A DNA stretch of 64,000 nt from Giardia intestinalis (taxonomy: Eukaryota): assembly GCA_000002435.2 (NCBI GenBank), contig CM018792.1. One strand, given 5' to 3'. Under the pieces are notes generated by a model, which saw nothing but the letters and a program-made list of their open reading frames with translations, did not search any database and was not told the origin of the DNA. Below, piece after piece: positions 1,976-45,748 of the stretch. Both the position numbers and the translations under genes were made by a program. Position 1 is the stretch's first letter, and each line of letters opens with the position of its first letter.

Positions 1976-1990
1976 ACTTAGGTAGTAAAC
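1976..1990 (+). terminator. Extended VSP polyadenylation signal ACTTAGGTAGTAAAC
   Basis: The sequence acttaggtagtaaac lies 3 nt after the VSP stop codon. It contains the general Giardia poly(A) motif AGTRAAY (AGTAAAC). It also matches the longer VSP-specific consensus ACTYAGRTAGTRAAY that recurs at every cassette boundary in the 54.8-64 kb array. Confidence 0.7.
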
Positions 1991-9685: not shown

Positions 9686-9788
9686 CAGAGAGCCTTTTTA
9701 ATGGCCATGCAAAATGGAAACTTTGGAAGGCTTAAAACCTTGAAATCCTTCCCCAAGTATTTTTTGTCTTCGTTTAGGTATTCCCAGG

Positions 9789-10196
9789 ATGTCATTAACA
9801 CAGCGCCTTCTGCCCTCTGACCATAAGTCTGTTGATGCGTCTCTTCAGGACCAGCAGATGATCAACACCTTTGCCCGGTTGCACATGGTTTATGTGGAGT
9901 TGGCAGAGCAGCGCAAGGTTCTCAAGAAGCGTCTCGATGACATAGAGAGCGCATCAGTTGCTCTTTTAGAGCTTGATGATACGGAGGTGAAGCCGATGCT
10001 CGCTATCGGGGCGGCTTTCTTCCCAAACGACTCCATGGACATTGATAACTCGCTGGAGGCTCTAAAGGCAACAGTCTCGCAAGAATACGAAGTCGTCTCT
10101 AATCGCTGTAGCAAGATAGAGGCCAAGCTCAATCAACTACGTGATGTGCTCCAACAGAAATTCAAGGGTTCGATAAACCTAGACTACGAAACCTAG
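9789..10196 (+). CDS. Prefoldin-like coiled-coil subunit (beta-type), 135 aa
   Basis: Two predicted coiled-coil helices flank a short beta-hairpin region (PMLAIGAAFFPNDSMDID) in the prefoldin beta arrangement. The size fits the family. Assignment rests on architecture only. Confidence 0.45.
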   Translation: MSLTQRLLPSDHKSVDASLQDQQMINTFARLHMVYVELAEQRKVLKKRLDDIESASVALLELDDTEVKPMLAIGAAFFPNDSMDIDNSLEALKATVSQEYEVVSNRCSKIEAKLNQLRDVLQQKFKGSINLDYET

Positions 10197-10317: not shown

Positions 10318-13300
10318 ATGAAACTTCCATATCAGCTCATTTCATGGTGTTTACGACAAGGAATTGCTACTCAATTACGATCTCCCCGACAGGATCTACA
10401 CAATGGATATCTTATTGCTGAACTTTTGAGCAAGTTGTACCCAGAGCATTTCAAGATAGTGCAATTTGATAATCAGAGTTCTGCGACCGTGACATCAAAG
10501 AATTGGAATAGAATCGCTGCAGTTGCTCCCAAGATAAAACTTTCCCTCACTGATACAGAACTTGAGGCATGCAAAGCTGGAGACGAACAGGCTCTTGTTT
10601 CTATATTGAAACGTGTTCACACCTTGCACACGGGGAAAGATCTGGCAGAGAGCAAGCAATCGACAAGACCAGTATCAACAAATGAGGATAGGTCGCTGAC
10701 TAAGGGTCCTGTCTCTAAGCTTGGGGTGGCATTGAACGCCAACCATCAAAATCAGACCATCACTCAGGACCCTCTTAAATTTCTTGTAACGCGGAACCTC
10801 GATAACATACATCATACATCTGCTCATGAACAAACGACCTTTGCCACGGCAACGAACCTTTCAACCATCTTGGTCCATGGTGACGCAGATGGACTGAATG
10901 CTGCCAGCTCCAGACCAAACAACTCTATGCTGTCTATGCGACCATCCACGGCTGCCGTTGATAACGATGATATGGCCTTTAGGATGAATCCTGGTGCTAC
11001 AGGTACATCCAATGAAAATAAGCTGCCGAAGAATGTCCCCAAGTTTGTGCGAGGCGTATATATCTCGACACGAAGACTCCTCATGGAGTTGTCGACAGCC
11101 TGCAAGAATGCAATTACATCTCTTCCAGAACTTCAGAACATGCTTGAGATGATTGATCCACGGGTGGACACCATCTATCCATTTATTAATATATGTCTGC
11201 GCGTTCCTTCAGAAAATGCAGTCGAGCTTTTCGACGCCTTGATCCTTGAGCTGAAGCCGTTTACAACTCTCTTGGTTGATCAAATTTCCGCCAATCCATT
11301 TCTCTTTTGGGAACTCCTGAAGTTGCTTGTCTTATCCTCCATCAACTTGCGGAGGGTAACTGGCCCAAAAGCGGAATTTCCACGGCAGGCGACTGAATAC
11401 CTGTTGCACCTGATTGCAGAGCTAGGCCGGTCTTCTCCGTCATCTCTTGCATTGATCTTCAGTCACATAATTAAAACTAGATTGATGCACGTGATCGATT
11501 TGCGTGAGTTCGGACTTCACAACTTTGTGGATCTTTATATGGCATTTTTGCCGATCATGGAGCATGAATCGGCGTTAGACATAATAACAAATATTATACA
11601 GCTTGCTGACAATAATTTTAGAGAAAAGTCTGATGGCCAATATATGATCAATCCCAGCAAGTTGCGGCTTGCTGTTTTAACCTCTATAGTTTCTGTCATC
11701 TCCGGCTACTTCATCAAGTTCTCCCATGATCCACGCTTTATGCTATATGGAATGTTTGTGTTACCATTGAAGCAACATATTGGAGAAAGTAAAGATGACC
11801 GCAGCAAGTCCAGCAGCCCCGTTAGGTTTTCTGAGCGTGATAACATGCATGCAAGCACAGGAACTGCCCAGTCCTGCAGCGAGTATAGTGTTTCCACTGG
11901 ATATGGGGTCATGGTTCAAGGAGATAACGAAGAAGAGATGCTCTCTGGCAGAGAGCTTTTGGAGCAAATGTTATTAGATATTCTCTATGTGATTATCCGC
12001 GTTCTAGTGGGGTCTGAGAATTTATTGATAGATGAAAGAGTCATCGTTCTGGACCTTCTGTTCAGGTGCTGTGCAGCAAATCCCCAGGAGCTAATGCCCC
12101 ATGCAGAACCCACTATTCTTGTTATCTTTGAGTCCATTGTTAATCGCACAAAGCCATGTATTACGCTAGTCTCTGATAGTGACGATGTAGAAGGGAACAC
12201 ACGGTCTTCGCACCAGCCTTATAGAGTAGCCAACGTTGCTCCAAACTATGGAAGCACTAAACTGACATCTCTCTGCGCTGGGACTGACCTACAGACAATC
12301 CCAGAAGAGGGTAGTAAGAAAACCAGCCTATCTGGTGGTAATCCTGCTACCAAGACCCCAAGAAGAGCGTCAATTGCTTCGTTATCTGTTCCAGAGACTC
12401 ACGCTATAGTAGATGGTCTTCACTCCTCCACGCACACAGCCTCGCTCGGGCCGTCAGTTAGCGTAGGCGCCAGTCAAATAAGTATAGTACCAAGTGACCG
12501 CCACAGTCCAATTGCTGTGATGAACACGGTGGCATCGGAACGGAGTGCAACGGAAACATCGCCCGAGCATAGTGTGGAGGGCATGGTAAAGGTTGAGACG
12601 CATGGCATAAATTGTCAATATGATAATATACCCTACCTACATTATGAAATGCTCCTTTCTCTAGTGCTCATCCTCCGAAGATATGCATCTCTGTGTATCA
12701 AGGATCATTATGACACGCCCTTAGTCCTCGTCTCCTATGACTTGGAAAGAGCCATAATGGACTTTCATGAGCGTCTCTCTCCTGTTTCTCTCCTCATTGG
12801 GATCCTGAGCTCAACCGGTAGAAACATGGACATGATGAAGCACATTACTCCCTTCACAATACAGACCATTCTCGACGATCCGGAAAAGGCTGAGGCGTAC
12901 AATGAGACATTGCACGTCCTTAGGTGTATTATGAACGTTCTCATACAGTCTCCTGATATGACGGAGATTGTCTTTGCCGCCCTCGACGGCAAGGGAGACT
13001 TTGAGCAATCTATAGTTAGCTATCCACCCCATTGCTATCTAAAGATCGTACAGGCTCTATATCCCGGTAGTGAGCTTATGGAGATAGTACCTGCGTTGCT
13101 ATGTGTCGCCGTAACGTATTCAAAGGAATTCCTTGCCAACAAGAGTATCGATCCAAACAATTACTTCATAGCCATCGCACGTCTCATAGAATTCATCCCG
13201 GACATAAGCTGCTTCGTCTATGACCACCTCAGTGACGAGCTCTTCACCCAGATTACAGACCCTCGAGTAAGTGAGACAGCAAGCTCTCTGTTGACAGACC

Positions 13301-31198: not shown

Positions 31199-31651
31199 AT
31201 GGCCAGGAGGGTCTTCTTTGCTATCGAGGGCGTTGTGAGCCTTGGGGGCGCCCACGTGCTCACCCAGGTGGACACTGGTGCTGTCACAAGCTCTCTGAAT
31301 GCTCGGAACGTGTTTGTCGCCAGGAAGAGCACGGGATCCATGCCTCTATGCGTCAGCTTTACAATGATATCCCGCTTCGATGGCAAGGAAAGGGAATACG
31401 AATTCTTCGATGTCCCAGGTCGGTACTATAAGCAAAATGAGGTTATAGTTGTAATTCCTGCGGTGCTGTGTGATCTGACACCGGTCCCCTACGAAATCCA
31501 ACTATACACTAAACTTCGGGACCGCGCTTCTTCTGTGTATGATCTCAGCATAGGACTAGATGTGTTTAGCCAATTACAAACCCAGTATAAGGTCAGGCCT
31601 TTTCTTCAAGTCACCAATTCAACTGGTCAGATTAACGTCTCAGGGCATTAA
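31199..31651 (+). CDS. Hypothetical 150-aa protein with a retropepsin-like (A2/DDI1-type aspartic protease) signature
   Basis: AHVLTQVDTGAVTSSL near the N-terminus matches the retropepsin active-site pattern (hydrophobic-hydrophobic-DTGA-hydroxy). A later IGLDVFSQL stretch resembles the ILG.DFL flap-proximal motif. The size fits a single retropepsin domain. The ATG sits 1 nt after the cathepsin B AGTAAAT signal. Confidence 0.4.
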   Translation: MARRVFFAIEGVVSLGGAHVLTQVDTGAVTSSLNARNVFVARKSTGSMPLCVSFTMISRFDGKEREYEFFDVPGRYYKQNEVIVVIPAVLCDLTPVPYEIQLYTKLRDRASSVYDLSIGLDVFSQLQTQYKVRPFLQVTNSTGQINVSGH

Positions 31652-32182
31652 AAGCACTATATAGACCTTCCGTATAGATATATGGGGTCACAACTATTAA
31701 AGAGTGGCAATTTCCTTTACTACAAATCTGAAGGGAGCTTCAAACAGCACAAAACTGTCTATTTTCCTTTGATTCCCTACGGAATCTGTATGTCCATCCC
31801 ATTCGGAATATAGTGCCACGGATAGTAGCCCGATGCTCTAGATAGGTAGCTACAAAGCTCGATGAGCGTCTCTGATGTAGCTTAACGGAGGCTGTTGCAA
31901 TCATTGAGCCTCCTCCAGAGCAGCATCCCATTAAAGCATATCAAGACCTCCATAGTGCATGATAACCATGCGTTATAGATGCTCAAGCCACGCTGTACAA
32001 ATCATGATCTTTTCGATTTAGAACACTACAAAACGAAATATCTTTGGTTACAAGACAGATTGGTATTATCTTTTTATCAACATAAATATGTTTCTGGAAC
32101 ATTCATGTAGCGCTGCACTGACCTCTTTGTGTATCCGTGAAGGCTTCAGACCTTGGTAGGCGTGGCATTAGCAAACGACTCA

Positions 32183-33731
32183 ATGGTTGAGCATTAATGT
32201 CTTTATACTTCTGGTTGGCCTTGCGCTCCATCTGGCGACAGAGGAGTGCACACCCGTCTCTGGTGATCAGCCCGACGCTTGCAAGGCCTGTAGCGCCGTC
32301 ATCAACGGCAAGAAGTACTGCTCGCAGTGCAACAGCGGTGGGTCTCAATCTGCCCCGACGGACGGAGTGTGCTTACCAGACAACGCTGTGTGTAATGCAA
32401 AAGCAGAAGGAAAGTGCACCATGTGCACGGGAAGCTCCTTCATGTACAAGGGCGGATGCTATGTAACAACCAAGGCGCCTGGCAATGCAGCGTGTACACA
32501 AGCAGCTGCTGGAGTGTGCACACAAGCCGCGCAAGGATACTTCCTGCCACCCGATGCTGATAGAGATAATGCACACCAATCGGTTATACCATGTGGAGAT
32601 GTTGAAGAAGTGTTGGCTGGAAACAGCCACAAGTACAAGGGCGTGCCGCACTGCACTCGGTGTGACACGCCTGACGCAGCAACCGATGCTAACGCCAAGG
32701 CTGCCACGTGCACGGCATGTGAGGACGGGTACTTTGTAGATAGCAGTAAAGGGTGCACTGCCTGTGATAGTAGTTGTAAAACGTGTGAGGCCACAGGAGA
32801 TACTAAGTGCAAGTCGTGTAAGGATGGCTACTTCCTGGCCGCAGCAGATAATAATCCAGGCAAGTGCATATCATGTGGAGATGTTCAAGGCTCAAGTGGC
32901 TGGAAGGGGGTCGCTGGATGCGCCAAGTGCAACAAACCAGCTAATGCAAACACCCCTGCCACATGCACTGAGTGCCAGGAAGATAAGTATCTGAAGACAG
33001 GTGAGACATCCAGCTGTGTCAGTGTAGAGGAGTGTAAGGATGGATTCTTCCCCACGACTGATAAACAAGGCAAGAAGGTGTGTGCTAAGTGCAGCGATAC
33101 TGCCAATGGTGGCATAGAGGGCTATGCAAAGTGCTCTCTCAAGGCAGCGTCTGCAAGAGCAGGTCCAATAGTTACGTGCTCTGAGTGCACCACAAACAAC
33201 CTGAGCCCCCTGAAGGACGCGTGTCTAACAGTCTGCCCTGCCGGGATGCATGCCAACAGCAAGGTGTGCACCCCCTGCCACGAGTCGTGCGCCGGCTGCC
33301 AGACCGATGACAAGGAGACTTCCTGTACGGCCTGCTACCCCGGATTTATACTCGTACGTGCTGGGGCTACCGATAAGGGCACGTGCGTTAAGGAGTGTAC
33401 AGGAGCAGCTGGAGCTGGTTGTGAAAGCAACATGTGCAATGCCAAGATAGCAGGGTCCAATTACTGCTCCAAGTGCATTACGGGGCAGGCACCCATCAAC
33501 GGTATTTGTACATCCGTAACAAGGTCCGCGAGAGATGCAGTCGGTTGTGCTCCGAGTAATGGAAAATGCACAGCGTGTACAGGAGACTATTTCCTCCAGT
33601 TTGGTGGATGCTATGAAAAGACGCAGTTCCCGGGAAAGATGGTATGTGCAGATGTAGACTCACAAAGAAAGTGTAATAGTTGCTTAAAGTTTGTGATGTA
33701 CATTTTGACGTTGTTGCGGAGCTGGAAGTAG
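32183..33731 (+). pseudogene. VSP pseudogene: start codon followed by a 1-nt insertion, and a 3' truncation that removes the TM/CRGKA tail
   Basis: ATGgTTGAGCATTAATGTC gives M-V-E-H-stop. Deleting the single g restores MLSINVFILLVGLALHLA, a textbook VSP signal peptide, in frame with 514 aa of CXXC-rich VSP body (FMYKGGCY, KTC, GGCYEKTQFPGK). The body ends abruptly (..CNSCLKFVMYILTLLRSWK*) about 170 aa short of where paralogues place the TM helix and CRGKA, and runs into unrelated AT-richer sequence. Confidence 0.75.
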
Positions 33732-34173
33732 ACTGAGAAGATCGATTTGAGGAGATTGAGGCAGGATCCTTCTACACGACTAACATCTGTCTGCAAAATA
33801 TTAACAATAAGAATGTCGGCAATGGCAGATGCGAAAGCGCCTATACAGCGTTCAATATTCTGATCATTTTCTGTGGCACGCTCTTTGCTCTCGGACCCCT
33901 TACAATAGAGTAGTAGTATGGTCGGATAGGATCCTGCACCTGGGATGAGTCCCGCTGTAAGCCCCTTGGTCGTCTTTTGTCGGTCGTCATCTTCATCCAA
34001 CGCCTTGAGGCATGTTCCAAAGAGGTCGTTGAAGAGGGTTGACCTGCTATATGACTGGTCAAGAATAACGACACACGCATAATGAAGGGAGTCAGAGCTG
34101 GGATGCTCCGCGCAAGAGCCATATACTTCTTGCTACATGCGCCCTCGTCTGTAACAAAAGGAGCCTCTATTCT

Positions 34174-35257
34174 TCAATGAATAGGGTCGATACCACTGTC
34201 TTCCTCAGTAAGGTGTTCTTCAGCAGCTTCAACATTTGTACCACCGAAAAGATATACAAGTGGGGGCTTAGACATGTTCGTGGACGTAGAGGAAGTTAAA
34301 GAAACCGTAACATTTGTCGGAGTGGAGCGTTCTGCAAGATGTTCGGATTCCTTATGTTGATCCTCCGCTTTAATTGCAGGGCTATTGAGTGTTTGGAAAA
34401 AGCCAATGATCTTTCTGGTCGTGGGCTGCTCTGCCGGGTCCAGGATGAATATCTTCTCGATGACAGTTCTTACGAATTCATCTGTGATGGCGCCCAAATC
34501 AGGCCTCCACTCATTGTCAAAGACTGCTTTCGCATCCTCTGGCTCCCAAAGTGTGAAAAGCTCGGCAAGCTCATACATGACGACTCCAGAGGCTCAGATA
34601 TCCGAAGCGGTGCTCGTCTCGTATGAAGGTCTCGGGGGCCATGTATGCCGACGTTCCTGCAAAGGTGCCTCCACTATGCAGAGAGTCCTTGCAGGGCCCA
34701 AAGTCTGCGAGCACGATGCGCTAGCCGTCCCTATTCATCAGAGTTGGCGGGCCCGAGGTCCCCGTAGACGAGGCTGTAAGATAAGCTCCCGTCTTCGGCC
34801 GCCTTGCGAGGGTTGTGGGGGTAGGCGAGGGCGTCAGCCATCTGCTCTAGGAGAGGGAACATCAGCCCCTTGGGACTGGGTTTACGAGCTGCCCTGTAGG
34901 CAGTGATAAATTTCTGGAGATCCCTGTGGTGGCGGTCCATGATGACGAAGATGGGTCGTTGCTCCTGATCACCTGGTGATACTTGATGACGCTAGGCTGG
35001 GAGAGTCTTGTGACAGTTTTCAGTTCGCACTCTGTGAGCTTCTTCTCACTACGCTTGATCATCCTCTCCTCCACAGAAAGGCCTGGACACCCATCGATGG
35101 CGCGAACGGCACCGAAGGCCCCTTTGCCTAGCAGCTCGCCTTCGCGCTGATACAGCTCTTCGGGACTGAACATGGGGATGCTATCGGGGCCACTGCCAGC
35201 GCTCTCTGCAGCACGAGTGGGACTCTCACTGACCATGTCATGCGCAATTAGATTCAC
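34174..35257 (-). pseudogene. Protein kinase (NEK-like) pseudogene broken by at least two frameshifts
   Basis: Three consecutive minus-strand ORF pieces in different frames carry, in order: kinase subdomains I-IV (LGKGAFGAV...VIKYHQV) at 34862..35257; subdomains V-VIb (IFVIMD..HRDLQ...ALAYPHN...YGDLG) at 34731..34940; and subdomains IX-XI (MYELAELFTLWEPEDAKAVFDNEWRPDLG...FILDPAEQPT) at 34174..34578. No single frame is open across the whole domain. Confidence 0.65.
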
Positions 35258-37682
35258 GCTTTCTATTACGCCAAACTAACAATTACTGTACTGGGGCCAA
35301 TTTTCGCAGAATCTGTGGATAGATAGCAATCACGGATTCGGTGAGCCTCAGCCTTGCTACCTCCTGGTCGAACGCTTTTCCTGTGCCAGAGAGGGCCCCC
35401 ACCGCCCGAACAGACTAACCCCGATACCGAAGTGGAGCACGTCTAGGCCCGACGGTGGAGAACCCTGGACCCGTTCATCAACAGCAGCCGCCGCAGCCGG
35501 GTCACCTGCCCCTCAGGTATCCCCCCGCAAACGCAGCTCGCCGCCCGGGGCACGACTGTCCGTGGCGGCGGCCAGCCCTTCATCAAGGGGGCGCGGTACT
35601 CAACCATGAGACGGCGCAGACCATGACCTGCAGATGCCGACAGGCATCCGGTGCCCTGTGGCCTGCCATGGAGGAGGGTGCAGGTACCACGAGTCTGCGC
35701 CTTTTGCTAGTGGCCGCCGATGCCCCTCTGCCGGACTATGTTGGCACCTTCGCTGACTCGTGCTGCGTTAGACTCCGGATGCATGTACCGTGGGCTGACT
35801 ACCAAACGCGATCGCAGCCCACATGGAATAGACAAGGCCTGCCTTGCTGACAAGAGTGAACTTCCTCTTCTCGGGGGAGGAGTCCACCGCACGCCTGAGC
35901 AAGAACGTGCATGGCCACCCAGCTTCTTTTGTAGATCAAGCCCAGCGATGGGCGGGACTTGTCGCCGCCGGTCGGTGACGCCACCTCTTCTGTCCGCTTT
36001 CTGGGATGCCACTGGGGCTCAGAGGCAGCGGGCATGCGGGAGGGTCGCCCAACGCACGCTCCCTAGGCCGTGTTGCGGAGGCCGGTCATCACGTATGGAA
36101 GGGGTTCGCAACAGGGCGCCGACGTGGGCAACGCCATGGATACCGCTCTATCCATTTTCAGTAAGCGGCTTTATCCCAGCATATAGTATTCTATGGTCTA
36201 ATTGTCCCATAACAAACCATACAAAAGCAGACCTTGCACAACCATAATCACCCTTAGAATGCATCAGAGTCAACAGGATAGATTCCAAGGGCCCAGAAAT
36301 TCAGTACTCTTGGTGCCTCGTTGTAAAGGGATTGCCAAAAGTATCCACACCACTTAGCCCTTAGTCCTCACAGAGCACTGACGTGGAAATGCAGTGTGGC
36401 TTACCTTTATGGGCTGATCTCCGTTTTCTGGCTTATAGATTAGTAGGCCCAACTTTGTCGATATCCTTAATAACCTTCCTGAAACTCCTTTCTGGATCAC
36501 CACTCTTATGGTAGAATCACGCGTCTGTATGAGCTTTGTGCATCCAGGTCATTCGTGTCATCGGGTCCGAAGACAGGGCCGATAACACGCGCGGCCTGAA
36601 TCCACTTATCATTGACAAAGGATGTATGCCCAGGTGTGAAACCGTGCCACAGCTTTGCATCTGGTGGAAAAGGCAAGACAGCTTTCTCTCATATTGCATA
36701 GGCTCAACTCTCTAACATAGATAAGCACGCTTCAATGTCGTAGTGAGAATAAAAAGGGCCAGCTAGAGGCTCATGATTGCATTGGCCACGACACACACAG
36801 TTGCTATTCCCCAATAGGCATCAGATTTATTCTATTTCACTGAACCTGGGTTGCTAGCCTTTGTCTGAGTAAATCTCCTATGGAAACGCCACCGCACTGG
36901 GTGATCCTCATCCGAATATAGGGCGTTCCGGAGATTCTTGCACAGGCCTTCAGCGAGATCCTCAGCGCGATCCATAGGATGGGATGCGTGCTCTGTACGG
37001 TTCCGCCTGGCCCTTCCCCAAGGGCGAGGCAGGACAACCACGATCAGCAGACGATCATGATTTGCTCCACAAGACAGTTCCAAGGAGCTGCGTCGGGGCC
37101 TTCCTCCGGCTGGGACGCGCTGCACCCTTGGACTCGGTCCCTCGGGGCCCTGAGCATGCTTCTGTGCTGCGCGGGACAGAACCTGCTCGCCAGGAGCTGA
37201 GGAGAGACCCCGCTCATTGCCCATGTCGACGACGCACTTAGCTTCCATAGTAGCAACAGTGACGCGACGGGGCAGTCACAGAGGCGACAGGCCTGGTGAA
37301 GCAACATGGCTCGACGGTCAACACTGGGTGTAGGAGTACGGAGGGACAGGAGGCCTCTCTCCTGGCCGGTCTCAAGGAGCCCCCAGGGCAACCGAGGGCC
37401 GAAGCTAGTGATGGCACTAATCACTCGCCGTGCTGGTTGAGACGGACCCACACGTGACCTATGTGAATCCCTCGACAAGAAATAGGAGTTGGGGTGCTTG
37501 GCTGGCAGAGGCGGACTGATCCTGCCCGCACCGGAGAGTGGTGGCGGCTCACATGAGAGATCACTCAGGTAGTAGGTGACCTCACCCCGGTGACACGGAG
37601 AGTAAATTAGTATCCTAGCCAGATTAAGTATTTTCATTGTAACAATCTTAGTTTGAAAATAATTATAGATTGTACTTCGCAT

Positions 37683-40600
37683 TTACATTGTTAGGATCGC
37701 AGAAATATCCTCATCACTTAGAGCGCCTAGGAGATGTCGCCTATCGGATTCGTCTAATATTAACCCGCTTGTCGGTTCGTGGTATATGCGATTGGGGGCA
37801 GTGTCTTCTAAATTAGGATACTTTTCATATTGCTTGATCATGTAGTCTATGTTTCGTAGCTCGCTATTAACAGCGCGTTCTATAGAGCCTGGAAGCCGCG
37901 GAGAGATTGGTTCGCGGCTAGCTAGCATCGGGCCGGGATCAACTGGGGTTCTACTGAGAGTAAACGACCCCGCAGAATTGGATCGAGGTAACGGCCGGTC
38001 TTTTGCTGGGATGCGGTACTCTGAACCACTGGGCGTGTAGGGTGCACGCGCAGACTGTGGCCGCAGTGGCTGTGTTTGGAGGTCTACTCGTGGAGAAGGC
38101 TGTAGCGCAGGATGAGAGTGATATGCCTCGTGCTGCTTCTGTTGTTGTTGGATGGTTTGCTTGGCAGCTCGTAATTCTGAAACCAGCGTTCTGATCCTGC
38201 CTTTGGCCACAGTCAGCTCTTTGTTGAGGGCCTCCACTTCTTCGGCCTTAGCAAGTACAGCAGGGCTCTTTGTAGACGGCGTACTTCGTCGAGCATCGAG
38301 ATCCTTCTTGAGTCGGACTACGTCTGCATGTAGAGACTTGTTTTTCGCCTGCATCTTTTCGTTTGCCGCGACAACCCCTTCAAGGTTTTTCTGGAGCTCT
38401 GCGAGCTTCTTGTCCTTTTTGGCCAGCGAGTTAGCGTGTTCAGCCTTCAACATTGCTTGAATGTTGGACAGTGCACCTTCGTGAGAGCGCTCTCGCTCCT
38501 GCATATCGGCTATTTGCTGCATAAATCCTTGCACTTTAGCATTTTCGTCGCGTAAAAGCCGTTCTAGCATATTACACTTATCAACTTTCATCTGTATGCT
38601 TTCCATCGCAGACTCTAGCTTTGCCCTCACTTGCAGCAGTTCGCAATCTGCTTCCCTAGCTTTTATTTTCATTTCTTCCTTGAGTTCTTCCACTTCTATC
38701 TGAGCTGCAGTCAGCATATCTTGCATGTTTTTACAGTCTTGGCACTCAAACCGAGGGGTTTGGGTTCCGACCCCAGTAGCCATGGTTGTGATACTATCAG
38801 TATACAGGGACAATGCAACATCTGGAGGCATTGACGTGTTGACCTTGCTATTTAGTGCAGAGAGATTGTGCATCCTATTGGCCAAGTCTTCATATTCAAT
38901 TCGCGAGACAATATCCATGTGAGATAGTTCTGATTGGGAAGACTTGTAGGAGGTATGAACAATCATAGTCTGCACTGATACAGTTACCGTTTTATCAAAG
39001 GTGTCGCTCCTTCTTAGCGATGTAGGCGACCGCACGAAGTGGAGCATTGCAGGAGTTGTAATAGAGGAATCCATAGGGGCGTCTAAATTGACCAGACTAA
39101 CCTGACATCCAATGGAGCTGGCAGTGCGATCAGATTGACTTCCAGAGAACTCGGAGATCTGCTTCTTAGCAGACAACAGTTCTTCCTGGAGAAGCCTTAT
39201 CTTGTTCCGCATAAGATTCTGAACAGATGACGCGCTCATCGGTCCATTTGCAGTTTCTAACAGATCAAGAAATGATAAGCTAAGTTTCTCATCGCCAGTT
39301 GAATCAGAATACATCTGAAGGCTGCTAGACGGTCTTTCACCTAGATTATCCCCAACTTGATGCTGTTCGGCTTTGGTAGGCATGGAAGCTGAGAAAAGCT
39401 TTTCTCTCAGATCCTCATTCTCCTGCTGGAGTTGCAGTACTTTTTCACGTAATATAGTAAAGCGATCGGACATGCGACTAAATTTAGAGAAGACGCGTCC
39501 AAGAGTGTCTCCAAGCCGTACCTTACATGCCTCAGTAGCACCTTCCGGCTCTACACGAACGCCTGATAAAAGCAAGTCCTGTACATCAAATTGCCTCTCA
39601 GGACTTGATAGTTTAGCACTGGCACCTCTACCATGTTCAGTGGGTGTTGTATGAAGAGATTGGAGCCTATGGTACTGAATACACTTCTCAATGTCCACCG
39701 CATAGCTCTCAATAATTGCTTTACAACCTTGCGCAGACCCTGTGTAAGCATTATAAAGTTTCTGGAGCCGAACACGCAGACCAGCCATGTCTGTACATTC
39801 ATTGTGTAAGCTAGTGTTTTCAGCTTGCAAAGCCAGGACCTGGTCCATAAGCTCTTGCTTTTCGTCCTTTAATGTCTTAATTGAGGCAACTAACGCATCA
39901 TACTCAGCTCCTTGTAAAATGTCACACTGAACTGAAGCAGAAAAAGTTTCCTTTTTCGTAGAATATAACTGTAATTCCTTTTCTAGCTTTGTAGTTGTCT
40001 CTTTTGCTTCAATGAGCTGTTGACGAAGACTCTCTTCCGTAGCCTTGAAGGAACGTAGTGCCTGAGTATATAATGATCGAATGTTCGAAAGATTGGATCG
40101 GATTTTGTCCTTCTTGCAGCAGATAAAGCGAATTGCACCCAACTTAAGACTTAAGCGAGTAACCTCACGATAAATTCTATCAGCTAGCTCAGTATTAAGC
40201 TGCTCTAAGGTTGAGATCCTCCTCTCGCATGCGCTTACAATGCGCTTGCTAGATGAAAGAATGAGCATTCCATTCTCTTGGGTCCCCAACATGGAAACAT
40301 CCTCGTGCAGTGTGTGATGGAAAAACGAAGTACCAGCATTAGTGGTTGCTTGTGTAGAAGGAACTGTTAGCCTAGAAAAATCTCCTGTCATATTGTCTGT
40401 CAATGGAGGTAAGGTGATAATCTCTCCTAGTCCTTCGCAAAGGGAAGAGATTCGAGACTTCATCCCTTGAAGCCTTAATTTAAGAGCTTTTAGTTCAACT
40501 TTCTTATCATCTGCTGATAGATTATTGAATGCTTTGGATTCCGCAAAACATGCCTGAAGCTCAGCTTGGAGGCCCTCACTGGGGCGAATAATGACGCCAC

Positions 40601-43217
40601 CTTCGGCTCGGCCTTTCTGCCACGCTGACTGCTGGGTTAGAGACTTTCTTGCATGCTCGACAGCGGAAAGCTTTGTCGGGACAAAGTTGGGGCCGCTATT
40701 CTGGCCTGCCTGCTGCGGTGGGACCTCATCATATATGATACCTGCAGCAGCTAGTCTAGAACTATACTCTGTGGGCGTTTCACTTTCTAGGATGAGAGCT
40801 AGGCTGTTGCAAATACGATAAGATGCCTCTCCCTCCAGCAGTGCTTCTGCACATCGCTTTATACTTAGAAATGCCAGTTGTAGGCCTGCAGAGTCATGCT
40901 GGGAGCTGCTTCTAACCGAGATAGAGGATGTCTGGGTAGTCGACGATGCTTGCTTGCTAGTTTGAAGGATAGCCTTGGTCAGTAACAGATCGTTTTCCTC
41001 ATTAAATAGCCGCAAGGACTCTTCCATCTCTTTGCATCGAAGACCATGCCCCTGTAGTAGCAAGGAGGAATACATGGATGCTAAGCTCTCTGCAACCATG
41101 CATCTAGCATATAGAGCCTCTACTGAGTCCTCTTTGTCTAGCGATGACAAGTCTTGCAAACTGATCCTGGCTTGGAGATTCACCTGGCGCTGCAGAAGCT
41201 CATTTTCAGCTGTCAACTCATCAATCCGTTCAGCAAACATAATGATCCTGTTTCGCGCAGCAGTAAGATCGTTAATCAATAGAGAAAGTTCATGACTAGA
41301 TGACCAGCTGTCCTTCACACCTTGGTAAGGGAGACGGCCCTTAGAATAAAATTGCTCCAACACATTGTAGCATATACTGCGATAGCGGACTGCTGTATCA
41401 TAGAAGAATTCTGTTGTCTTTTTGGAATCAACCATGCTATTAAGTATCTTCAGTAGGTGTCCTCCGTGTCCGCTAGATAGCGGCGGATTGAGGATGGAGC
41501 TGATATGGGTGTTCATGCGGGATACTATCGCGCTATGCGTTGACAGGGTAGATGCATCAGAGGAGCCCTCAGCGGAAGTTTGGGACTTATTAACTGATGT
41601 AATAAGCTTTTGTTTCCCACGCGTATCTTTGTTATCCTTCACTAGCTTGTACATGCTATCCTGCTCAGTGATAATAGCATGAATATCTGCACACAATCGC
41701 GAATTCAAACGCTCAAGACGGTGGATCTCTGCCTCTAGCTCGTGTTGTCTCATCATCGCCTGATTGCATCTTATTTCCCAAAGACTATCGGGTATAGACA
41801 CTGGCAACAATGAAACAAGTGATTTAATTGCATTTCTATTGATATGTATCTCATTCTTTTCGTTATTTTTTAAGTCTGGTTGTTCTGTGTTGTCAACAGG
41901 TTTGTAATTTTGTGTTGTCAGCGCTCTCATTAGCTCTAGATCCTGCTCCCATAACCCGTCTCTATATGATTGTAATACAAGTGTTTCAACAACATTGCTA
42001 TTAAACAAGTCCGATTTTAGAATTTCATCTTGAACTGTGTTAACAATGCCCAGCCCCAGCTTTATCTTATAGATTTCTCGTATCTTGATGAGGAGGGCTC
42101 TCTTAAGCTCCATAATAAGATCTTTGTCATCCTCATTGCTCACTTGAAGGATCTTGTGGATTTTCAAGTTGTACTCAGTCTGAGTAGTCGCGTGGACAGG
42201 CTTTCTATGGATTGTCTCCTTAGTTATGTCATTGGATGATTCTGAGTCGGATTCTATATACTCATATTCAAGATCTGTAGCTGAAGCTGAGCCACCGTTA
42301 TCACTGGTAGACGTTCCAGAGTCTCCTAAGGAGACCTTCGATACCCGACGTCGGCGCTTCTTGAGTTCTTGTTGTCTTCTTTCAATGACACCGTTTTCTC
42401 CCTCTTCTATTACCTCTATGCGGGTCGAAAATCGAATAGACTTTTCCAGTGGAACATCGGGGCCCAGAGAGACAGAATTTGTAGCAACACGCTTATATAT
42501 CTCCAGATCCTCGGTTTGCTTGTCGCGGAGAGACTTCTCACCCATGTCTATGATGATGTTATGGAGCTCCTGTATCTTCGTGTCCTTTTCAACAAGCAGT
42601 GCTTCCATATTTGCCCGCTCTCTGATGCACGCATCTACTTTTGCTGACAGCGCTATTGCTTTCTCATTGATTTCATGCATGAGTTGAAGGTCCTTTTTCT
42701 GCTCAGCGACTTGCGCCTGGCTGGTTGCTATAACTCGATCTCTATCTGTGATTATTTCTTGAAGTCGACTAATTTCTTCATCCCGCTCTAGTAAGCATCT
42801 TTCTAACTTATCATAATTCTCTTGAAAGGCCTCATCCATTGTGGCGCTTTGAGTTTCCATAGTTTGCTTTAATAGGAGTAATTCTGTAGTTTTCGCCTCA
42901 TTCTGACTACGTAGATGCCGTAATTCCGTCTCCATTCTGCTTAGTTTAGCTTCGAGCGCATTCTGTGTTCGCTCTAACAGAAGCTCCTTTTCCGTTTGAT
43001 CCTTAAGCGCTGCCTCCATGGTTCCAAGGATGTGCTTGTGCTGTCGAACCTCTTGAACGTGTACTTCGCCCAAACTAATTAGTTGAACGCAGGCTTCTGG
43101 TAAGTCTCCTCGCTTCATCAGATCAATGCATTCACGATACTCCTCAGGAAGCTTCCTTACTCTTTGGGCCAAAATGACGGGATCAATCTGCTCCCCTGCA
43201 CTCCCTTCCCCTGCCAT
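37683..43217 (-). CDS. Very large coiled-coil protein (1844 aa), a probable cytoskeletal or basal-body structural protein
   Basis: A single 5.5 kb ORF dominated by heptad-like E/K/L/Q-rich segments along most of its length. No enzymatic motif recognised. Confidence 0.7.
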   Translation of the reverse strand: MAGEGSAGEQIDPVILAQRVRKLPEEYRECIDLMKRGDLPEACVQLISLGEVHVQEVRQHKHILGTMEAALKDQTEKELLLERTQNALEAKLSRMETELRHLRSQNEAKTTELLLLKQTMETQSATMDEAFQENYDKLERCLLERDEEISRLQEIITDRDRVIATSQAQVAEQKKDLQLMHEINEKAIALSAKVDACIRERANMEALLVEKDTKIQELHNIIIDMGEKSLRDKQTEDLEIYKRVATNSVSLGPDVPLEKSIRFSTRIEVIEEGENGVIERRQQELKKRRRRVSKVSLGDSGTSTSDNGGSASATDLEYEYIESDSESSNDITKETIHRKPVHATTQTEYNLKIHKILQVSNEDDKDLIMELKRALLIKIREIYKIKLGLGIVNTVQDEILKSDLFNSNVVETLVLQSYRDGLWEQDLELMRALTTQNYKPVDNTEQPDLKNNEKNEIHINRNAIKSLVSLLPVSIPDSLWEIRCNQAMMRQHELEAEIHRLERLNSRLCADIHAIITEQDSMYKLVKDNKDTRGKQKLITSVNKSQTSAEGSSDASTLSTHSAIVSRMNTHISSILNPPLSSGHGGHLLKILNSMVDSKKTTEFFYDTAVRYRSICYNVLEQFYSKGRLPYQGVKDSWSSSHELSLLINDLTAARNRIIMFAERIDELTAENELLQRQVNLQARISLQDLSSLDKEDSVEALYARCMVAESLASMYSSLLLQGHGLRCKEMEESLRLFNEENDLLLTKAILQTSKQASSTTQTSSISVRSSSQHDSAGLQLAFLSIKRCAEALLEGEASYRICNSLALILESETPTEYSSRLAAAGIIYDEVPPQQAGQNSGPNFVPTKLSAVEHARKSLTQQSAWQKGRAEGGVIIRPSEGLQAELQACFAESKAFNNLSADDKKVELKALKLRLQGMKSRISSLCEGLGEIITLPPLTDNMTGDFSRLTVPSTQATTNAGTSFFHHTLHEDVSMLGTQENGMLILSSSKRIVSACERRISTLEQLNTELADRIYREVTRLSLKLGAIRFICCKKDKIRSNLSNIRSLYTQALRSFKATEESLRQQLIEAKETTTKLEKELQLYSTKKETFSASVQCDILQGAEYDALVASIKTLKDEKQELMDQVLALQAENTSLHNECTDMAGLRVRLQKLYNAYTGSAQGCKAIIESYAVDIEKCIQYHRLQSLHTTPTEHGRGASAKLSSPERQFDVQDLLLSGVRVEPEGATEACKVRLGDTLGRVFSKFSRMSDRFTILREKVLQLQQENEDLREKLFSASMPTKAEQHQVGDNLGERPSSSLQMYSDSTGDEKLSLSFLDLLETANGPMSASSVQNLMRNKIRLLQEELLSAKKQISEFSGSQSDRTASSIGCQVSLVNLDAPMDSSITTPAMLHFVRSPTSLRRSDTFDKTVTVSVQTMIVHTSYKSSQSELSHMDIVSRIEYEDLANRMHNLSALNSKVNTSMPPDVALSLYTDSITTMATGVGTQTPRFECQDCKNMQDMLTAAQIEVEELKEEMKIKAREADCELLQVRAKLESAMESIQMKVDKCNMLERLLRDENAKVQGFMQQIADMQERERSHEGALSNIQAMLKAEHANSLAKKDKKLAELQKNLEGVVAANEKMQAKNKSLHADVVRLKKDLDARRSTPSTKSPAVLAKAEEVEALNKELTVAKGRIRTLVSELRAAKQTIQQQQKQHEAYHSHPALQPSPRVDLQTQPLRPQSARAPYTPSGSEYRIPAKDRPLPRSNSAGSFTLSRTPVDPGPMLASREPISPRLPGSIERAVNSELRNIDYMIKQYEKYPNLEDTAPNRIYHEPTSGLILDESDRRHLLGALSDEDISAILTM

Positions 43218-43318
43218 GTTTCTAGAAAGCTCTTATTTCAGCCAGGAACGCTCCTCTGAAATGTAAAAGATGGGAATTTTAATCATTTTTTGCTCCCATT
43301 CACTCAGCGGTTGACAGA

Positions 43319-45748
43319 ATGTCCGTTGACGAGTTTTCTAGAGACTTTGAGATAATAGAAGATATTGTCAACCGCCCCAGTGAGCGTCTCCTGAAAGTGC
43401 GCGGCAAAACCTCTGGTGCATATTATGCATGCAGGCAAATAGACGTATCAAAGCTCAAACAAGAACAGCAGCAGATGCTTGAAGCTGAAATACACCTGTT
43501 TCAACAGCTAGATGGAAAATTAACCACTCGTTACCTCAGGGTGCTGCGCAACAATAAGCCTAGCGTTATCCATTTGATCATGGAATACTGTGACGACGGG
43601 ACATTAGAAGACTTGTTTGTAAGAACTCGGGAAAGAAGAATACCTTGTACAGAGGAAAAGACACGAGCTATTGGGTCTCAGATAGCACATGCTTTGAGCG
43701 CTCTCCGCTCCTCGGCCTGTGGACTTGATGGGGCTACCGTTATGGGCGCTCTTACGCCGAAATCTGTCCTCTTACTCAGCACAGGAAAGATCAGACTTAA
43801 AGGACTTTGCTCATGGCATTCATCGGGACAGATTTCTATATCAACTCGAGCAGACTACATGATATCGTATACTGCACCCGAGGTGTTTACTAGTAACATT
43901 TATAATGAGCAATCGGAGGTGTGGGCTCTAGGATGCATTCTGTATGAGGCCCTTGCAGCAAGGAGATGCTTCTCCGCAGAAACGGGAGCTATTCTGAGGC
44001 ATAACATAATTAACTGCAAATATGCTCCACTTCCTAGCAGCGTCAGCGAAGGAATGAAGCTGCTAATTTCAGAAATGCTCAAGCCCGATTATAATTCCCG
44101 TCCGACTTTACTAGATGTTAGGTTATCCCTTCAACTGCTTAGCAATGCAGAAAAGACGCATCATTGGGACCCCGATATCATAACAGAGATCGCTGGCCAT
44201 CCAACACCAGTTGCGGACTCAATCAAGAAGCTGGTAGGGATGGTTAGTGGAGATATTGTCACATTCCTGCAGAATCCAAGCAGTCCAGTAGTTTCTGCAT
44301 ATATACACACTGATCTAAAGACATCTAAAGCCTCGGGAAACGTGCATCTCGCTGGTAAGGTTGTTCTTACAAAGTCCACGTATGCGGATGGTGCGACTAA
44401 CTGTGCTATCGACAGATCCAGACTACCTACCAGCGCAAGCATAGTGTACACGAGATCAAGCAGCAAAGGTAAAACGAGTTCCATTGTACACACCCCATCC
44501 ATGTCGAAGATGGCTAATACCATACGTCATGGAGCCAGATCGCATAGTAGTTTTTCATCCTCTGCGCTTCAAACTCCCAATTTAACCTGCAAACACGTGG
44601 TATCAAGTTTCAGAAAGTCTATCGGCTCAAATGGTATATTAAACAATAACAGTACTTCTGTTTCAAATACAGACTCATTAAGAAAAAAGCATGCTTCCGA
44701 TTGCAACGTGGACATGAACTCTGATAGCTTGACCCTTAGCAACCTAAATACTGGGCAAGATTGCTTACAACAAAAGCCACAGTTCTTAGAGCGCAATGGT
44801 GGAGGTTCTTCTGTTAGATCCGCTAGTGTAAGATTGCCATCCATGTCAATGACAACGAAACCCGCAAATCTGCAACTAATGGCCCTACACAACGCAGTAG
44901 GAGGTTCGTTTAACGCCCTGAGCAGAGACGTGACATTCAGTAAAACGCAAAGCTCGACCACAGATGTGTGTGGTACAACTGATTTGATGATTGCAGCAGT
45001 GAAAGGGAATGCTTCTCTTGTTGAACGTTACCTTGATACGCAGTCGGGGATGAGAAATTGCAATGGTATGACAGCACTGATGCTCGCAGCAGAGCGAGAC
45101 CATGAGGCTGTAGTCTTACTCCTGCTCGCCACAGAGGGGCGCATGCATGTCTTACTTCCGGACGGGCGCAAGGGAAAGACAGCACTTATGTTTGCCGCCA
45201 TCAACAATCATACAAGTACTGTACAACGTCTTTTGGAGACTGAGGCTGGCCAGCAAGATGAAAATGGCAACACAGCCTTAATGCTTGCTGTGAAGCACCG
45301 GTTTACAGACGTAGTGAAACAGTTGGTGCAGTGGGAAGGAAAGATGGCAAATGAGAGAGGAGAAACCGCCCTTATGATGGCTGCAGCAACTGGAGACGTA
45401 ACTAGCGTAGGGTTATTGATAGACACGGAAGCTGGCTCAGTAACGACGTATGGCTGGACTGCGCTATGCTTTGCTGTCATGAACCATCATGCTTTGGCAG
45501 CCGAGGCTCTTGCTCAACGAGAACTTGGGTTGCAATGTTTTCAACATGGTTGTAGTGGTGTGACTGCGTTTATGATAGCCGCTGAGGCAGGATACGTAGA
45601 TATAGCATCATTGCTGGTAGAAAAGGAGGTATTTCTTCGAAACAAGAACGGCGAAAAAGCACTGGATATAGCCATTAAAGCAGGTCAGGCAGATATGATT
45701 GCCTTCTTAGAGAATGCAGAAAGACTCCTAGAAGCAGATATGTGCTGA
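43319..45748 (+). CDS. NEK-like kinase-fold protein with eight C-terminal ankyrin repeats, a predicted pseudokinase
   Basis: The N-terminal ~280 aa follow the kinase-domain outline (beta3 Lys context, ...MEYCDDGTLEDL, APE-like TAPEVF, ...GCILYEAL) but have no GxGxxG, no HRD and no DFG. The C-terminus carries eight ankyrin-type repeats (G.TALM.AA..GH..VV..LL). Confidence 0.8.
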   Translation: MSVDEFSRDFEIIEDIVNRPSERLLKVRGKTSGAYYACRQIDVSKLKQEQQQMLEAEIHLFQQLDGKLTTRYLRVLRNNKPSVIHLIMEYCDDGTLEDLFVRTRERRIPCTEEKTRAIGSQIAHALSALRSSACGLDGATVMGALTPKSVLLLSTGKIRLKGLCSWHSSGQISISTRADYMISYTAPEVFTSNIYNEQSEVWALGCILYEALAARRCFSAETGAILRHNIINCKYAPLPSSVSEGMKLLISEMLKPDYNSRPTLLDVRLSLQLLSNAEKTHHWDPDIITEIAGHPTPVADSIKKLVGMVSGDIVTFLQNPSSPVVSAYIHTDLKTSKASGNVHLAGKVVLTKSTYADGATNCAIDRSRLPTSASIVYTRSSSKGKTSSIVHTPSMSKMANTIRHGARSHSSFSSSALQTPNLTCKHVVSSFRKSIGSNGILNNNSTSVSNTDSLRKKHASDCNVDMNSDSLTLSNLNTGQDCLQQKPQFLERNGGGSSVRSASVRLPSMSMTTKPANLQLMALHNAVGGSFNALSRDVTFSKTQSSTTDVCGTTDLMIAAVKGNASLVERYLDTQSGMRNCNGMTALMLAAERDHEAVVLLLLATEGRMHVLLPDGRKGKTALMFAAINNHTSTVQRLLETEAGQQDENGNTALMLAVKHRFTDVVKQLVQWEGKMANERGETALMMAAATGDVTSVGLLIDTEAGSVTTYGWTALCFAVMNHHALAAEALAQRELGLQCFQHGCSGVTAFMIAAEAGYVDIASLLVEKEVFLRNKNGEKALDIAIKAGQADMIAFLENAERLLEADMC

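Follow-up and report, generated by a model that had tools for sequence, protein, structure and literature searches.

The window analysed here, a 64,000-nt stretch of DNA, is from Giardia duodenalis WB (assemblage A1), as identified by exact protein matches to GL50803_7620, to a NEK kinase and to GL50803_7632, an old gene model. Between GL50803_7620 and an intact coiled-coil gene of 1844 aa (37683-43217, - strand) lies an assemblage-A-specific island of ~5.9 kb, i.e., roughly 6 kb (31652-37606; boundaries approximate). The island contains a truncated VSP pseudogene (32187-33731, + strand) that matched positions 1-244 of 397 in the Pfam VSP profile (E = 3.7e-51) and has neither a TM/CRGKA tail nor the extended VSP poly(A) motif. 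It is followed by a fragment of an RHD3/Sey1-like GTPase gene (33611-34000, - strand; Pfam PF05879, E = 4e-15, profile positions 23-130 of 245) and by a frameshifted kinase-like pseudogene (34174-35257, - strand) in three ORF pieces, each in a different frame. The kinase-like remnant was recognised only by its motifs and by weak, colinear matches to protein kinases in the PDB (E 0.009-0.6), Pfam being negative, and 28 gap columns separate WB from isolate DHA2 in the 250-nt bin that starts at window position 34500, within this pseudogene. In the 2020 annotation, KAE8304516 and KAE8304518 are separated by a single protein accession, which presumably belongs to the coiled-coil gene.

The initial annotation had described the 2.4 kb at 35258-37682 as a GC-rich ORF desert abutting kinase and VSP pseudogenes. 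Its GC content is indeed 55.5% (0.555) vs. 48.5% (0.485) for the whole window, and 0.576 for the 1977-3855 stretch to which it had been likened; the G/C-rich runs that had been quoted lie at 35482-35512 and 35563-35579. The kinase-like remnant directly adjoins the desert, whereas the VSP ORF is 1.5 kb away. Composition is tripartite rather than uniform, with 64.5% GC at 35340-36130, 45.9% at 36131-36899 and 61.2% at 36900-37590, and AT-richer edges. The right-hand edge is the AT-rich 3' flank of the coiled-coil gene (37607-37682, 29% GC).

The longest ORFs of the desert measure 212, 175, 138 and 131 aa. An ATG-initiated ORF of 212 aa was attained in 1.8% of composition-preserving shuffles and a stop-free run of that length in 9%; the ORFs are therefore near what composition alone would produce, as had been proposed, although a length of 212 aa, exceeding that in 98% of the shuffles, counts somewhat against a non-coding reading. 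No 3-base periodicity was detected in any 300-nt window of the desert (P > 0.08 throughout), whereas most windows of the flanking VSP and coiled-coil genes are periodic, and variable sites within the desert show no phase bias. Pfam searches of all six frames returned no match at E <= 1, Rfam gave none at the gathering threshold over the whole window and none at E <= 1 over 35000-37900, and a tRNA search found none. A retroelement or bacterial-gene remnant was rejected on the empty six-frame Pfam search, and a spliced gene on the lack of Giardia-type splice signals, neither GTATGT nor the extended 3' splice motif being present on either strand; rDNA was likewise sought and not found. CCCTA-type 7-mers expected of a telomerase-RNA template were absent, and direct, inverted and tandem repeats internal to the desert amounted to nothing meaningful. 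When the desert ORFs were concatenated as a single protein query, nothing was returned; that query missed even an identical database entry, making its negative result uninformative.

A derivation of the desert itself from VSP or kinase genes, which had also been suggested, found no support. Matches by tblastn of all window proteins to the desert were no more than those to a shuffled control, and the desert was rejected as a decayed paralogue of window genes on that ground. The sequence at 37562-37578 (ACTCAGGTAGTAGGTGA) agrees with the VSP poly(A) motif ACTTAGGTAGTRAAYGC at 13 of 17 positions, and a VSP 3' end there was rejected as unsupported, as real VSP 3' ends aligned to the desert no better than shuffled controls; these nucleotides are part of the terminal arm of a dispersed repeat (see below), not a VSP tail. 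The suggested search for degenerate repeats shared with 1977-3855 was extended to all other parts of the window and found none, a dot-plot (blastn, word size 7) giving chance matches only.

What had been surmised to be a larger decayed segment corresponds to the island as a whole. The island was found in four assemblage-A assemblies and is missing from contig L002, which represents a more divergent Giardia lineage. There, an AT-rich spacer of 188 bp is all that lies between the GL50803_7620 homologue and the coiled-coil gene, as measured from the homologue of 31080-31643 to that of 37682-43996. In two further contigs (L003 and L005), the coiled-coil gene is followed by AT-rich sequence, as it is in L002, and not by the GC-rich repeat. 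From this one clean empty site and two short contig ends, the island would appear to be an insertion in assemblage A rather than a deletion elsewhere.

A transcribed and polyadenylated segment

Six short Logan contigs map to the desert and all are confined to 35353-36878 (+ strand), a unit of unique sequence that is transcribed, polyadenylated and apparently non-coding. The source of one of these, L009, is a documented WB1B RNA-seq run (SRR2642197), while the RNA nature of the other source runs was deduced from the contig bounds and one poly(A) tail. This tail is at the end of contig L010, which terminates in CTT followed by a run of 24 or more non-templated A residues just past the Giardia poly(A) signal AGTAAAT (36868-36874, + strand), placing cleavage at ~36878, ~4 nt past the end of the signal. 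The signal is kept in the genomic copies represented by L006 and L007. The 5'-most RNA-seq contig begins at 35353, immediately to the right of an AT-richer spacer (35258-35352, ~41% GC) that we presume to be a divergent promoter region, most likely serving both the + strand transcript and, head-to-head with it, the kinase-like pseudogene. At the other end, a short unique spacer with only 2 variable sites (36879-37009) separates the poly(A) site from the repeat copy. Transcription and polyadenylation of this ~1.5 kb had been overlooked in the initial annotation. A further contig feature concerns L008, whose 5' end carries 183 nt of foreign sequence joined at 35506; a splice signal is absent from the junction, and we took the foreign sequence to reflect either a chimeric assembly or a rearrangement peculiar to one isolate.

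Within the transcribed segment is a 175-aa ORF (35720-36247, + strand) that matches XP_001704589.1 exactly and was formerly the hypothetical protein GL50803_7632. Were this a real, young, assemblage-A-specific gene, 35353-36878 would be its mRNA. Its position within a polyadenylated RNA would suit a gene, as would its annotation in both the 2007 WB genome and DHA2, and its frame stays open, with no stop and no indel, in all 4 of the assemblage-A sequences compared. However, its differences among isolates comprise 13 non-synonymous and 2 synonymous changes (omega 2.2-3.7), and the ATG is GTG in the three other isolates. The ORF shows no periodicity and contains no domain, no homologue was found outside its own cluster among 5.8 billion proteins, and no accession for it was found in the 2020 annotation. 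Moreover, the 3' UTR would measure 630 nt, which is long for a Giardia mRNA. We therefore judged the ORF spurious and a coding gene very unlikely, and these data support removing GL50803_7632 from the gene annotation.

Divergence between WB and DHA2, pooled over 35353-36878, was 62 of 1526 sites (4.1%), compared with a dS of 4.6% in the neighbouring gene. Considering this neutral rate of evolution and that the only ORF of note is the spurious one of 175 aa, the polyadenylated RNA, negative in all coding tests, is most readily interpreted as a sterile transcript. A segment located within a VSP island, with stable transcription in several data sets, could also be imagined to yield a functional long non-coding RNA or a precursor of small RNAs acting in VSP control. 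Divergence of the 35720-36247 segment, at 2.8%, is somewhat under the neighbour's dS, so weak constraint on it is possible, and in fold tests of 150-nt windows one, at 35558-35707, folded better than its shuffles (z = -3.4). Yet that window is a marginal outlier, one among 62 tests, the mean z being approximately -0.3, and a structured RNA was rejected on these values. There was also no Rfam match even at E <= 1 and no complementarity to the VSP genes of the window, divergence is neutral overall, and the locus is missing from another lineage. We consider such a regulatory role improbable, though slightly less so than a coding gene, and retain the sterile-transcript reading.

A copy of a dispersed repeat at 37010-37606

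The suggestion that the desert might harbour an inserted element proved apt for its right-hand part, where 37010-37606 (- strand) belongs to a dispersed, non-coding repeat family whose ends are inverted repeats. This copy is truncated, having two internal deletions and lacking the far arm. A phmmer search yielded 21 related ORF clusters at other Giardia assemblage A loci, and isolate DHA2 alone carries at least 11 dispersed copies, some of them between housekeeping genes; two pattern scans of JGI metagenomes added no further copies. Alignment of the window copy to three paralogues (L014, L015 and L016) showed 77-86% DNA identity. Elsewhere in the family, inverted arms of ~45-140 nt surround a non-coding core of 0.9-1.4 kb. 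The longest copy, L014, has arms of ~140 nt each (9785-9925 and 11015-11155), those of L015 are shorter, and the window copy retains one only, a near-terminal arm at 37535-37606 (- strand) that matches L014 9763-9837; the L014 arm to which it corresponds pairs with 11015-11155. An outward-facing AGTAAAT on the + strand (37601-37607) is found at this arm. The window copy and L015 occupy gene-poor, near-VSP settings and show deletions of the microhomology-mediated type; L014 and L016 are surrounded by housekeeping genes.

The repeat family codes no protein. Variable sites among copies are spread evenly over codon positions (52/47/45), and Pfam gave no match at E <= 1 for the six frames of the window desert, the L014 copy or four family ORFs. 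A family of "hypothetical proteins" annotated in WB and DHA2, with GL50803_31391, _120021, _26631 and _99326, and DHA2_150057 and _152313, among its members, is flagged by these results as translations of a non-coding repeat.

Copies are 79-85% alike and variable in structure, and one 47-bp indel is bordered by direct repeats of CCGTCG. The WB copy shares 87% identity with its positional orthologue and, across 37250-37399, 96% with the paralogue L014. A hot spot of divergence between A1 and A2 coincides with the repeat, which we attribute to sequence exchange among the copies. Ectopic gene conversion would be the mechanism of this exchange, and GC-biased conversion may be the cause of the high GC content.

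As to where the family came from, one possibility is GilD (Genie 2), reportedly a "dead" non-LTR retrotransposon family of Giardia, of which 37010-37606 would be a deleted remnant and the desert a graveyard. For Genie 2 copies, inverted repeats as long as ~172 bp have been described, with which the ~140-nt arms of L014 may be compared. The repeat resembles GilD, as described, in being dispersed and degenerate, and may do so in the gene-poor site of the window copy near a VSP (one paralogue is 350 nt downstream of a VSP) and in its deletions between short direct repeats, such as the internal deletion of the window copy bordered by CCGTCG. Also in favour, the 3' UTRs of retroelements in Giardia are unusually long (PMC5537684). 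Unlike GilD, however, the repeat has no detectable reverse-transcriptase or endonuclease remnant, whichever frame was searched in the window copy, L014 or the family ORFs; its copies reach only 0.6-1.4 kb, and those between housekeeping genes (L014 and L016) are not beside VSPs. The comparison was with the description of GilD, and we regard this origin as possible but less likely than not.

The inverted terminal arms bounding a short non-coding core, together with the many dispersed copies, some between housekeeping genes, are also what a MITE-like, non-autonomous DNA transposon, mobile now or formerly in assemblage A, would look like. Such elements differ in having target-site duplications, sharp termini and a partner transposase. 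Among the three to five copies examined, no duplicated flank was seen at the ends of L014 or L015 and the arm boundaries are fuzzy; no transposase was found and, to our knowledge, none is known. The divergence and heterogeneity of the copies mark them as old, with no sign of recent transposition, and a transposon of this kind thus seems unlikely.

A broader and similarly doubtful proposal, to which we give only marginally more credence, is that the repeat, at 0.9-1.4 kb and apparently confined to assemblage A, could be an undescribed non-autonomous mobile element, either MITE-like or a foldback derived from Genie 2. Ectopic conversion would still be keeping its copies alike, the copies would give rise to breaks in synteny, and its outward-facing poly(A) signals might act as terminators shielding neighbours from read-through. 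If it were a mobile element, it would join the very short list of transposable elements in Giardia.

The desert as part of a VSP-associated island

We estimate a probability of roughly three in four that the desert is non-coding DNA, made up of a transcribed segment and a repeat copy, that has built up in an assemblage-A island associated with VSPs and prone to recombination. By this account, the unique 1.5-kb segment (35353-36878, + strand) is transcribed, with the AT-rich spacer common to it and the kinase-like pseudogene as the most likely promoter, giving an RNA that is polyadenylated ~4 nt past its AGTAAAT, evolves neutrally and is probably sterile. The 0.6-kb repeat copy (37010-37606, - strand) would exchange sequence with others through ectopic gene conversion, and the copies would shed segments by deletion between short direct repeats.

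VSPs are already known to lie in regions that are poor in genes, rich in GC and subject to rearrangement, and the desert is ordinary for such a region. VSP islands are GC-rich, of atypical composition and located at synteny breaks (Jerlstrom-Hultqvist et al., 2010; PMC3091692), and around VSPs genes are sparse and mapped reads reveal more variation in allelic sequence (Xu et al., 2020; PMC7000408). The island described here similarly combines a synteny break between assemblages, GC above the genome average (blocks of 0.61-0.65) and an atypical trinucleotide pattern. It holds VSP, NEK-like, GTP-binding and "hypothetical" remnants of variable families, and has a low coding density and raised variation between isolates. 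Those papers treat the class genome-wide, whereas here a single island is dissected, yielding a unique segment that is transcribed and a specific dispersed repeat.

Bidirectional and cryptic promoters of Giardia yield sterile, polyadenylated transcripts, as related by Franzen et al. (2013; PMC3610916), citing Teodorovic et al. (2007). The 35353-36878 RNA is like these transcripts from AT-rich promoters in being polyadenylated and non-coding, in ending ~4 nt past an AGTRAAY-type signal and in starting beside a head-to-head (pseudo)gene. Most of the cases described are antisense to genes, whereas this RNA crosses 1.5 kb of intergenic DNA from a putative promoter.

These findings leave current understanding unchanged. 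They provide one dissected example of how a VSP island may be built from gene fragments, a sequence-exchanging dispersed repeat and promiscuous transcription and, for annotation, they account for a 2.4-kb gap in a genome that is more than 80% coding.

Composition and coding content of the desert

The initial annotation had described 35258-37682 as a GC-rich desert of ORFs, and this description was borne out: the stretch is real and conceals no conventional gene. Both of the G/C-rich strings quoted for it were found in the sequence, and its GC fraction was 0.555, compared with 0.485 for the whole window and 0.576 for the first desert (1977-3855). In GC content the desert is tripartite, with high-GC blocks at 35340-36130 (64.5%) and 36900-37590 (61.2%) separated by a middle block at 36131-36899 (45.9%), and its edges are AT-richer. 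The longest ORFs were of 212, 175, 138, and 131 aa; an ATG-initiated ORF of 212 aa was reached in 1.8% of block shuffles and an equally long stop-free run in 9%. Three-base periodicity was absent from every 300-nt window of the desert but evident in most of those taken from the VSP and coiled-coil genes that flank it.

Searches for other identities gave no candidates. Pfam matched none of the desert's six frames at E <= 1, and Rfam returned no family at the gathering threshold for the whole window, nor any at E <= 1 for 35000-37900. Within the desert there were no tRNAs, no tandem or internal repeats of note, no GTATGT or Giardia 3' splice motif, and no telomere-template motif. Fold energies in sliding windows were not below those of dinucleotide shuffles (mean z of -0.3 on the plus strand and -0.1 on the minus strand); the sole 150-nt window that folded clearly better, 35558-35707 (+; z = -3.4), holds a perfect GATGCC/GGCATC hairpin and is marginal given the 62 windows tested. 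Degenerate repeats common to the desert and 1977-3855, a possibility raised in the initial annotation, did not materialize, as blastn (word size 7) against the whole window found no similarity between the two stretches, nor any between the desert and the VSP array. Similarly, tblastn of all long window ORFs against the desert gave no excess over a shuffled control, and alignment of VSP 3' ends to it did not rise above chance. A concatenated multi-ORF protein query returned no matches despite an identical 175-aa database entry; such negatives are untrustworthy, and the word-based candidate list is apparently overwhelmed when low-complexity queries are concatenated.

The surrounding lineage-specific island

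The window ORF at 31199-31651 (+) is identical to protein GL50803_7620 of Giardia lamblia/duodenalis strain WB (ATCC 50803, assemblage A1), that at 43319-45748 to a NEK kinase of WB, and the 175-aa ORF inside the desert (35720-36247, +) to the WB "hypothetical protein GL50803_7632" (hereafter ORF7632). Bordering the desert, an 1844-aa ORF (37683-43217, -) shows 98% identity to coiled-coil protein DHA2_112787. We compared contigs carrying orthologues of this coiled-coil gene and found the layout in DHA2 (assemblage A2; L001) to be the same as in WB. On a more divergent contig, L002, the coiled-coil gene is 82% (protein) and 77% (DNA) identical to that of WB, the level given for assemblage A versus B (PMC3610916), and is followed by a 188-bp AT-rich spacer and then the GL50803_7620 homologue. 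Since the flanking genes are only 188 bp apart there, nothing in L002 corresponds to the ~31.7-37.6 kb block. On two other divergent contigs, L003 and L005, the coiled-coil gene is followed by AT-rich sequence for at least 260 nt and not by the GC-rich block. GL50803_7620 itself (150 aa, hypothetical) is well conserved in the L002 lineage; its WB/DHA2 omega of ~1.1 comes from 7 non-synonymous and 2 synonymous differences, too few to interpret.

Besides the desert, the island contains a truncated VSP (32187-33731), which covers only positions 1-244 of 397 of the Pfam VSP profile and lacks both a CRGKA tail and the extended VSP poly(A) motif, an RHD3-like GTPase fragment, and a frameshifted kinase-like remnant (34174-35257, -) with weak but colinear PDB kinase matches and no Pfam match. 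The GTPase fragment, a third gene fragment absent from the initial annotation, lies between the other two as a 129-aa ORF (33611-34000, -) matching positions 23-130 of 245 of the RHD3/Sey1-like domain PF05879 (E = 4e-15). The island thereby fits what has been documented for VSP regions of Giardia: GC-rich islands whose composition is atypical, located where synteny breaks and containing VSP, NEK, GTP-binding, and hypothetical genes (PMC3091692). Such regions are also poor in genes, and mapped reads show increased allelic sequence variation in them (PMC7000408). Indeed, all of our observations fit known properties of such islands, and what is new is detail rather than kind, namely a polyadenylated, presumably sterile RNA that underlies a deprecated gene model, and a dispersed repeat family whose ends are inverted repeats. 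The suggestion of a larger decayed segment or inserted element holds in that the desert lies within a decayed, inserted, lineage-specific segment absent from L002; its proposed origin as a former VSP-kinase neighborhood is unsupported, as nothing pointed to VSP or kinase genes as the source of the desert. Every intact VSP 3' end in the window is cleanly marked by the extended VSP poly(A) motif, ACTTAGGTAGTRAAYGC (PMC3091692). This motif coincides exactly with the 3' ends of five VSP ORFs (1976-1992 on the plus strand; 56732, 58628, 60549, and 62420 on the minus strand) and recurs once, at 54816-54832 (-), as a degenerate version carrying 3 mismatches; chance alone would yield 0.34 matches.

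A polyadenylated RNA spanning ORF7632

Most of the desert is transcribed, and on this point our reading differs from the initial annotation. ORF7632 is encoded by six short Logan contigs (1.0-1.5 kb; 99.6-100% identity to the window), all within 35353-36878, in the left two-thirds of the desert. The source run of one (L009), SRR2642197, is an Illumina RNA-seq data set from WB1B trophozoites (PMC5224939, Table 1). Another (L010) tracks the genome to 36878 and continues as CTT plus at least 24 A; the sequence of three genomic versions at this position is TATGGAAAC. The Giardia poly(A) signal, AGTAAAT, occupies 36868-36874 (+) and is among only three AGTRAAY matches on the plus strand, with zero on the minus strand. 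Taken together, the contig bounds, the RNA-seq run, the poly(A) tail, and the AGTAAAT signal indicate that an RNA of ~1.5 kb is made from the plus strand and polyadenylated. One contig (L008, from SRR3568100) begins with 183 unrelated nt (1-183) upstream of a junction at 35506 that bears no splice signal; it represents either a chimeric assembly or a rearrangement within the GC-rich block that is specific to one isolate. A 9-column indel among four genomic sequences falls in the 100-nt bin 35451-35550.

The transcribed unit shows no coding signature. Among four assemblage A sequences (WB, DHA2, and the ENA metagenome contigs L006 and L007), ORF7632 had 15 variable sites, distributed 4/9/2 by codon position, and no other frame gave a consistent phase bias. 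WB and DHA2 differ in it by 13 non-synonymous and 2 synonymous changes, and omega was 2.2-3.7 in three comparisons, compared with 0.15 for the coiled-coil gene. Its start codon is ATG in WB and GTG in the other three sequences, and a protein database search found no relatives beyond its own cluster. Pooled over 35353-36878, WB-DHA2 divergence was 62/1526 sites (4.1%), similar to the 4.6% seen at synonymous sites of the neighboring gene. The 5'-most contig end, 35353, lies directly past a 95-bp spacer (41% GC), on the far side of which the kinase-like pseudogene runs in the opposite direction. Giardia promoters are short, AT-rich, and bidirectional, with many sterile polyadenylated RNAs as a result (PMC3610916). 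Considering this behavior and the spacer next to a head-to-head pseudogene, we infer that the transcript would be a sterile by-product of a bidirectional AT-rich promoter.

A dispersed repeat at 37010-37606

With the 212-aa ORF (37044-37682, -) as query, exhaustive phmmer retrieved 21 clusters of related ORFs (52-89% identity), the named members all being "hypothetical proteins" of other assemblage A loci: GL50803_31391, GL50803_120021 (two entries), GL50803_26631, and GL50803_99326 in WB, and 11 models on 11 different contigs in DHA2. The family is nevertheless non-coding. By codon position in the ORF frame, variable sites between copies numbered 52/47/45, the open frame differs from copy to copy, and Pfam gave no match; a repeat has thus been translated into a dozen "hypothetical proteins."

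DNA alignment with three paralogous loci (L014, L015, and L016) defined a core of ~830 nt, over which L014, taken as the reference, shares 77-86% identity with the other copies. In L014 the element is ~1.4 kb long, lies between housekeeping genes, and is bounded by inverted arms of ~140 nt each (9785-9925 and 11015-11155). The L015 copy, located 350 nt downstream of a VSP, has shorter inverted arms. Of the two arms, the window copy (37010-37606), in the right quarter of the desert, retains only that at 37535-37606, and compared with L014 it is also missing two internal segments. At the outer arm end is an outward-facing AGTAAAT (37601-37607, +), and two paralogues have similar poly(A) signals at matching positions. 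A MITE-like element would be another reading of this arrangement, but neither a target-site duplication nor a sharp terminus was seen. Copies of Genie 2 have reportedly been described with inverted repeats of up to ~172 bp. Beyond its repeat copy, at 6990-7356, L015 (DHA2 AHGT01000010) runs straight into what appears by eye to be the middle of an Obg/YchF-like GTP-binding reading frame and then ends; this is possibly a further gene fragment next to a repeat copy.

The repeat explains a sharp WB/DHA2 divergence hot spot, with 72-82% identity and a 47-bp indel between genes that are 98-99% identical. Identity of the WB copy across the shared core is 87.0% with its positional orthologue and 84-85% with paralogues; at 37250-37399 it is 96% with the L014 paralogue but only 88% with the orthologue. 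This mosaic pattern of sequence identity indicates probable ectopic conversion between copies. The 47-bp indel recurs among paralogues and is flanked by CCGTCG direct repeats, and therefore fits deletion between microhomologies. The dead non-LTR family GilD is reported from gene-poor sites beside VSPs and with microhomology-mediated deletions (PMC2861651). No reverse transcriptase or endonuclease remnant was detectable in the repeat, and we do not claim membership in GilD for it. A second WB/DHA2 hot spot lies in the VSP pseudogene body at 32250-33250, where identity is only 72-84% compared with 97-99% in the flanks, presumably also from exchange with paralogues.
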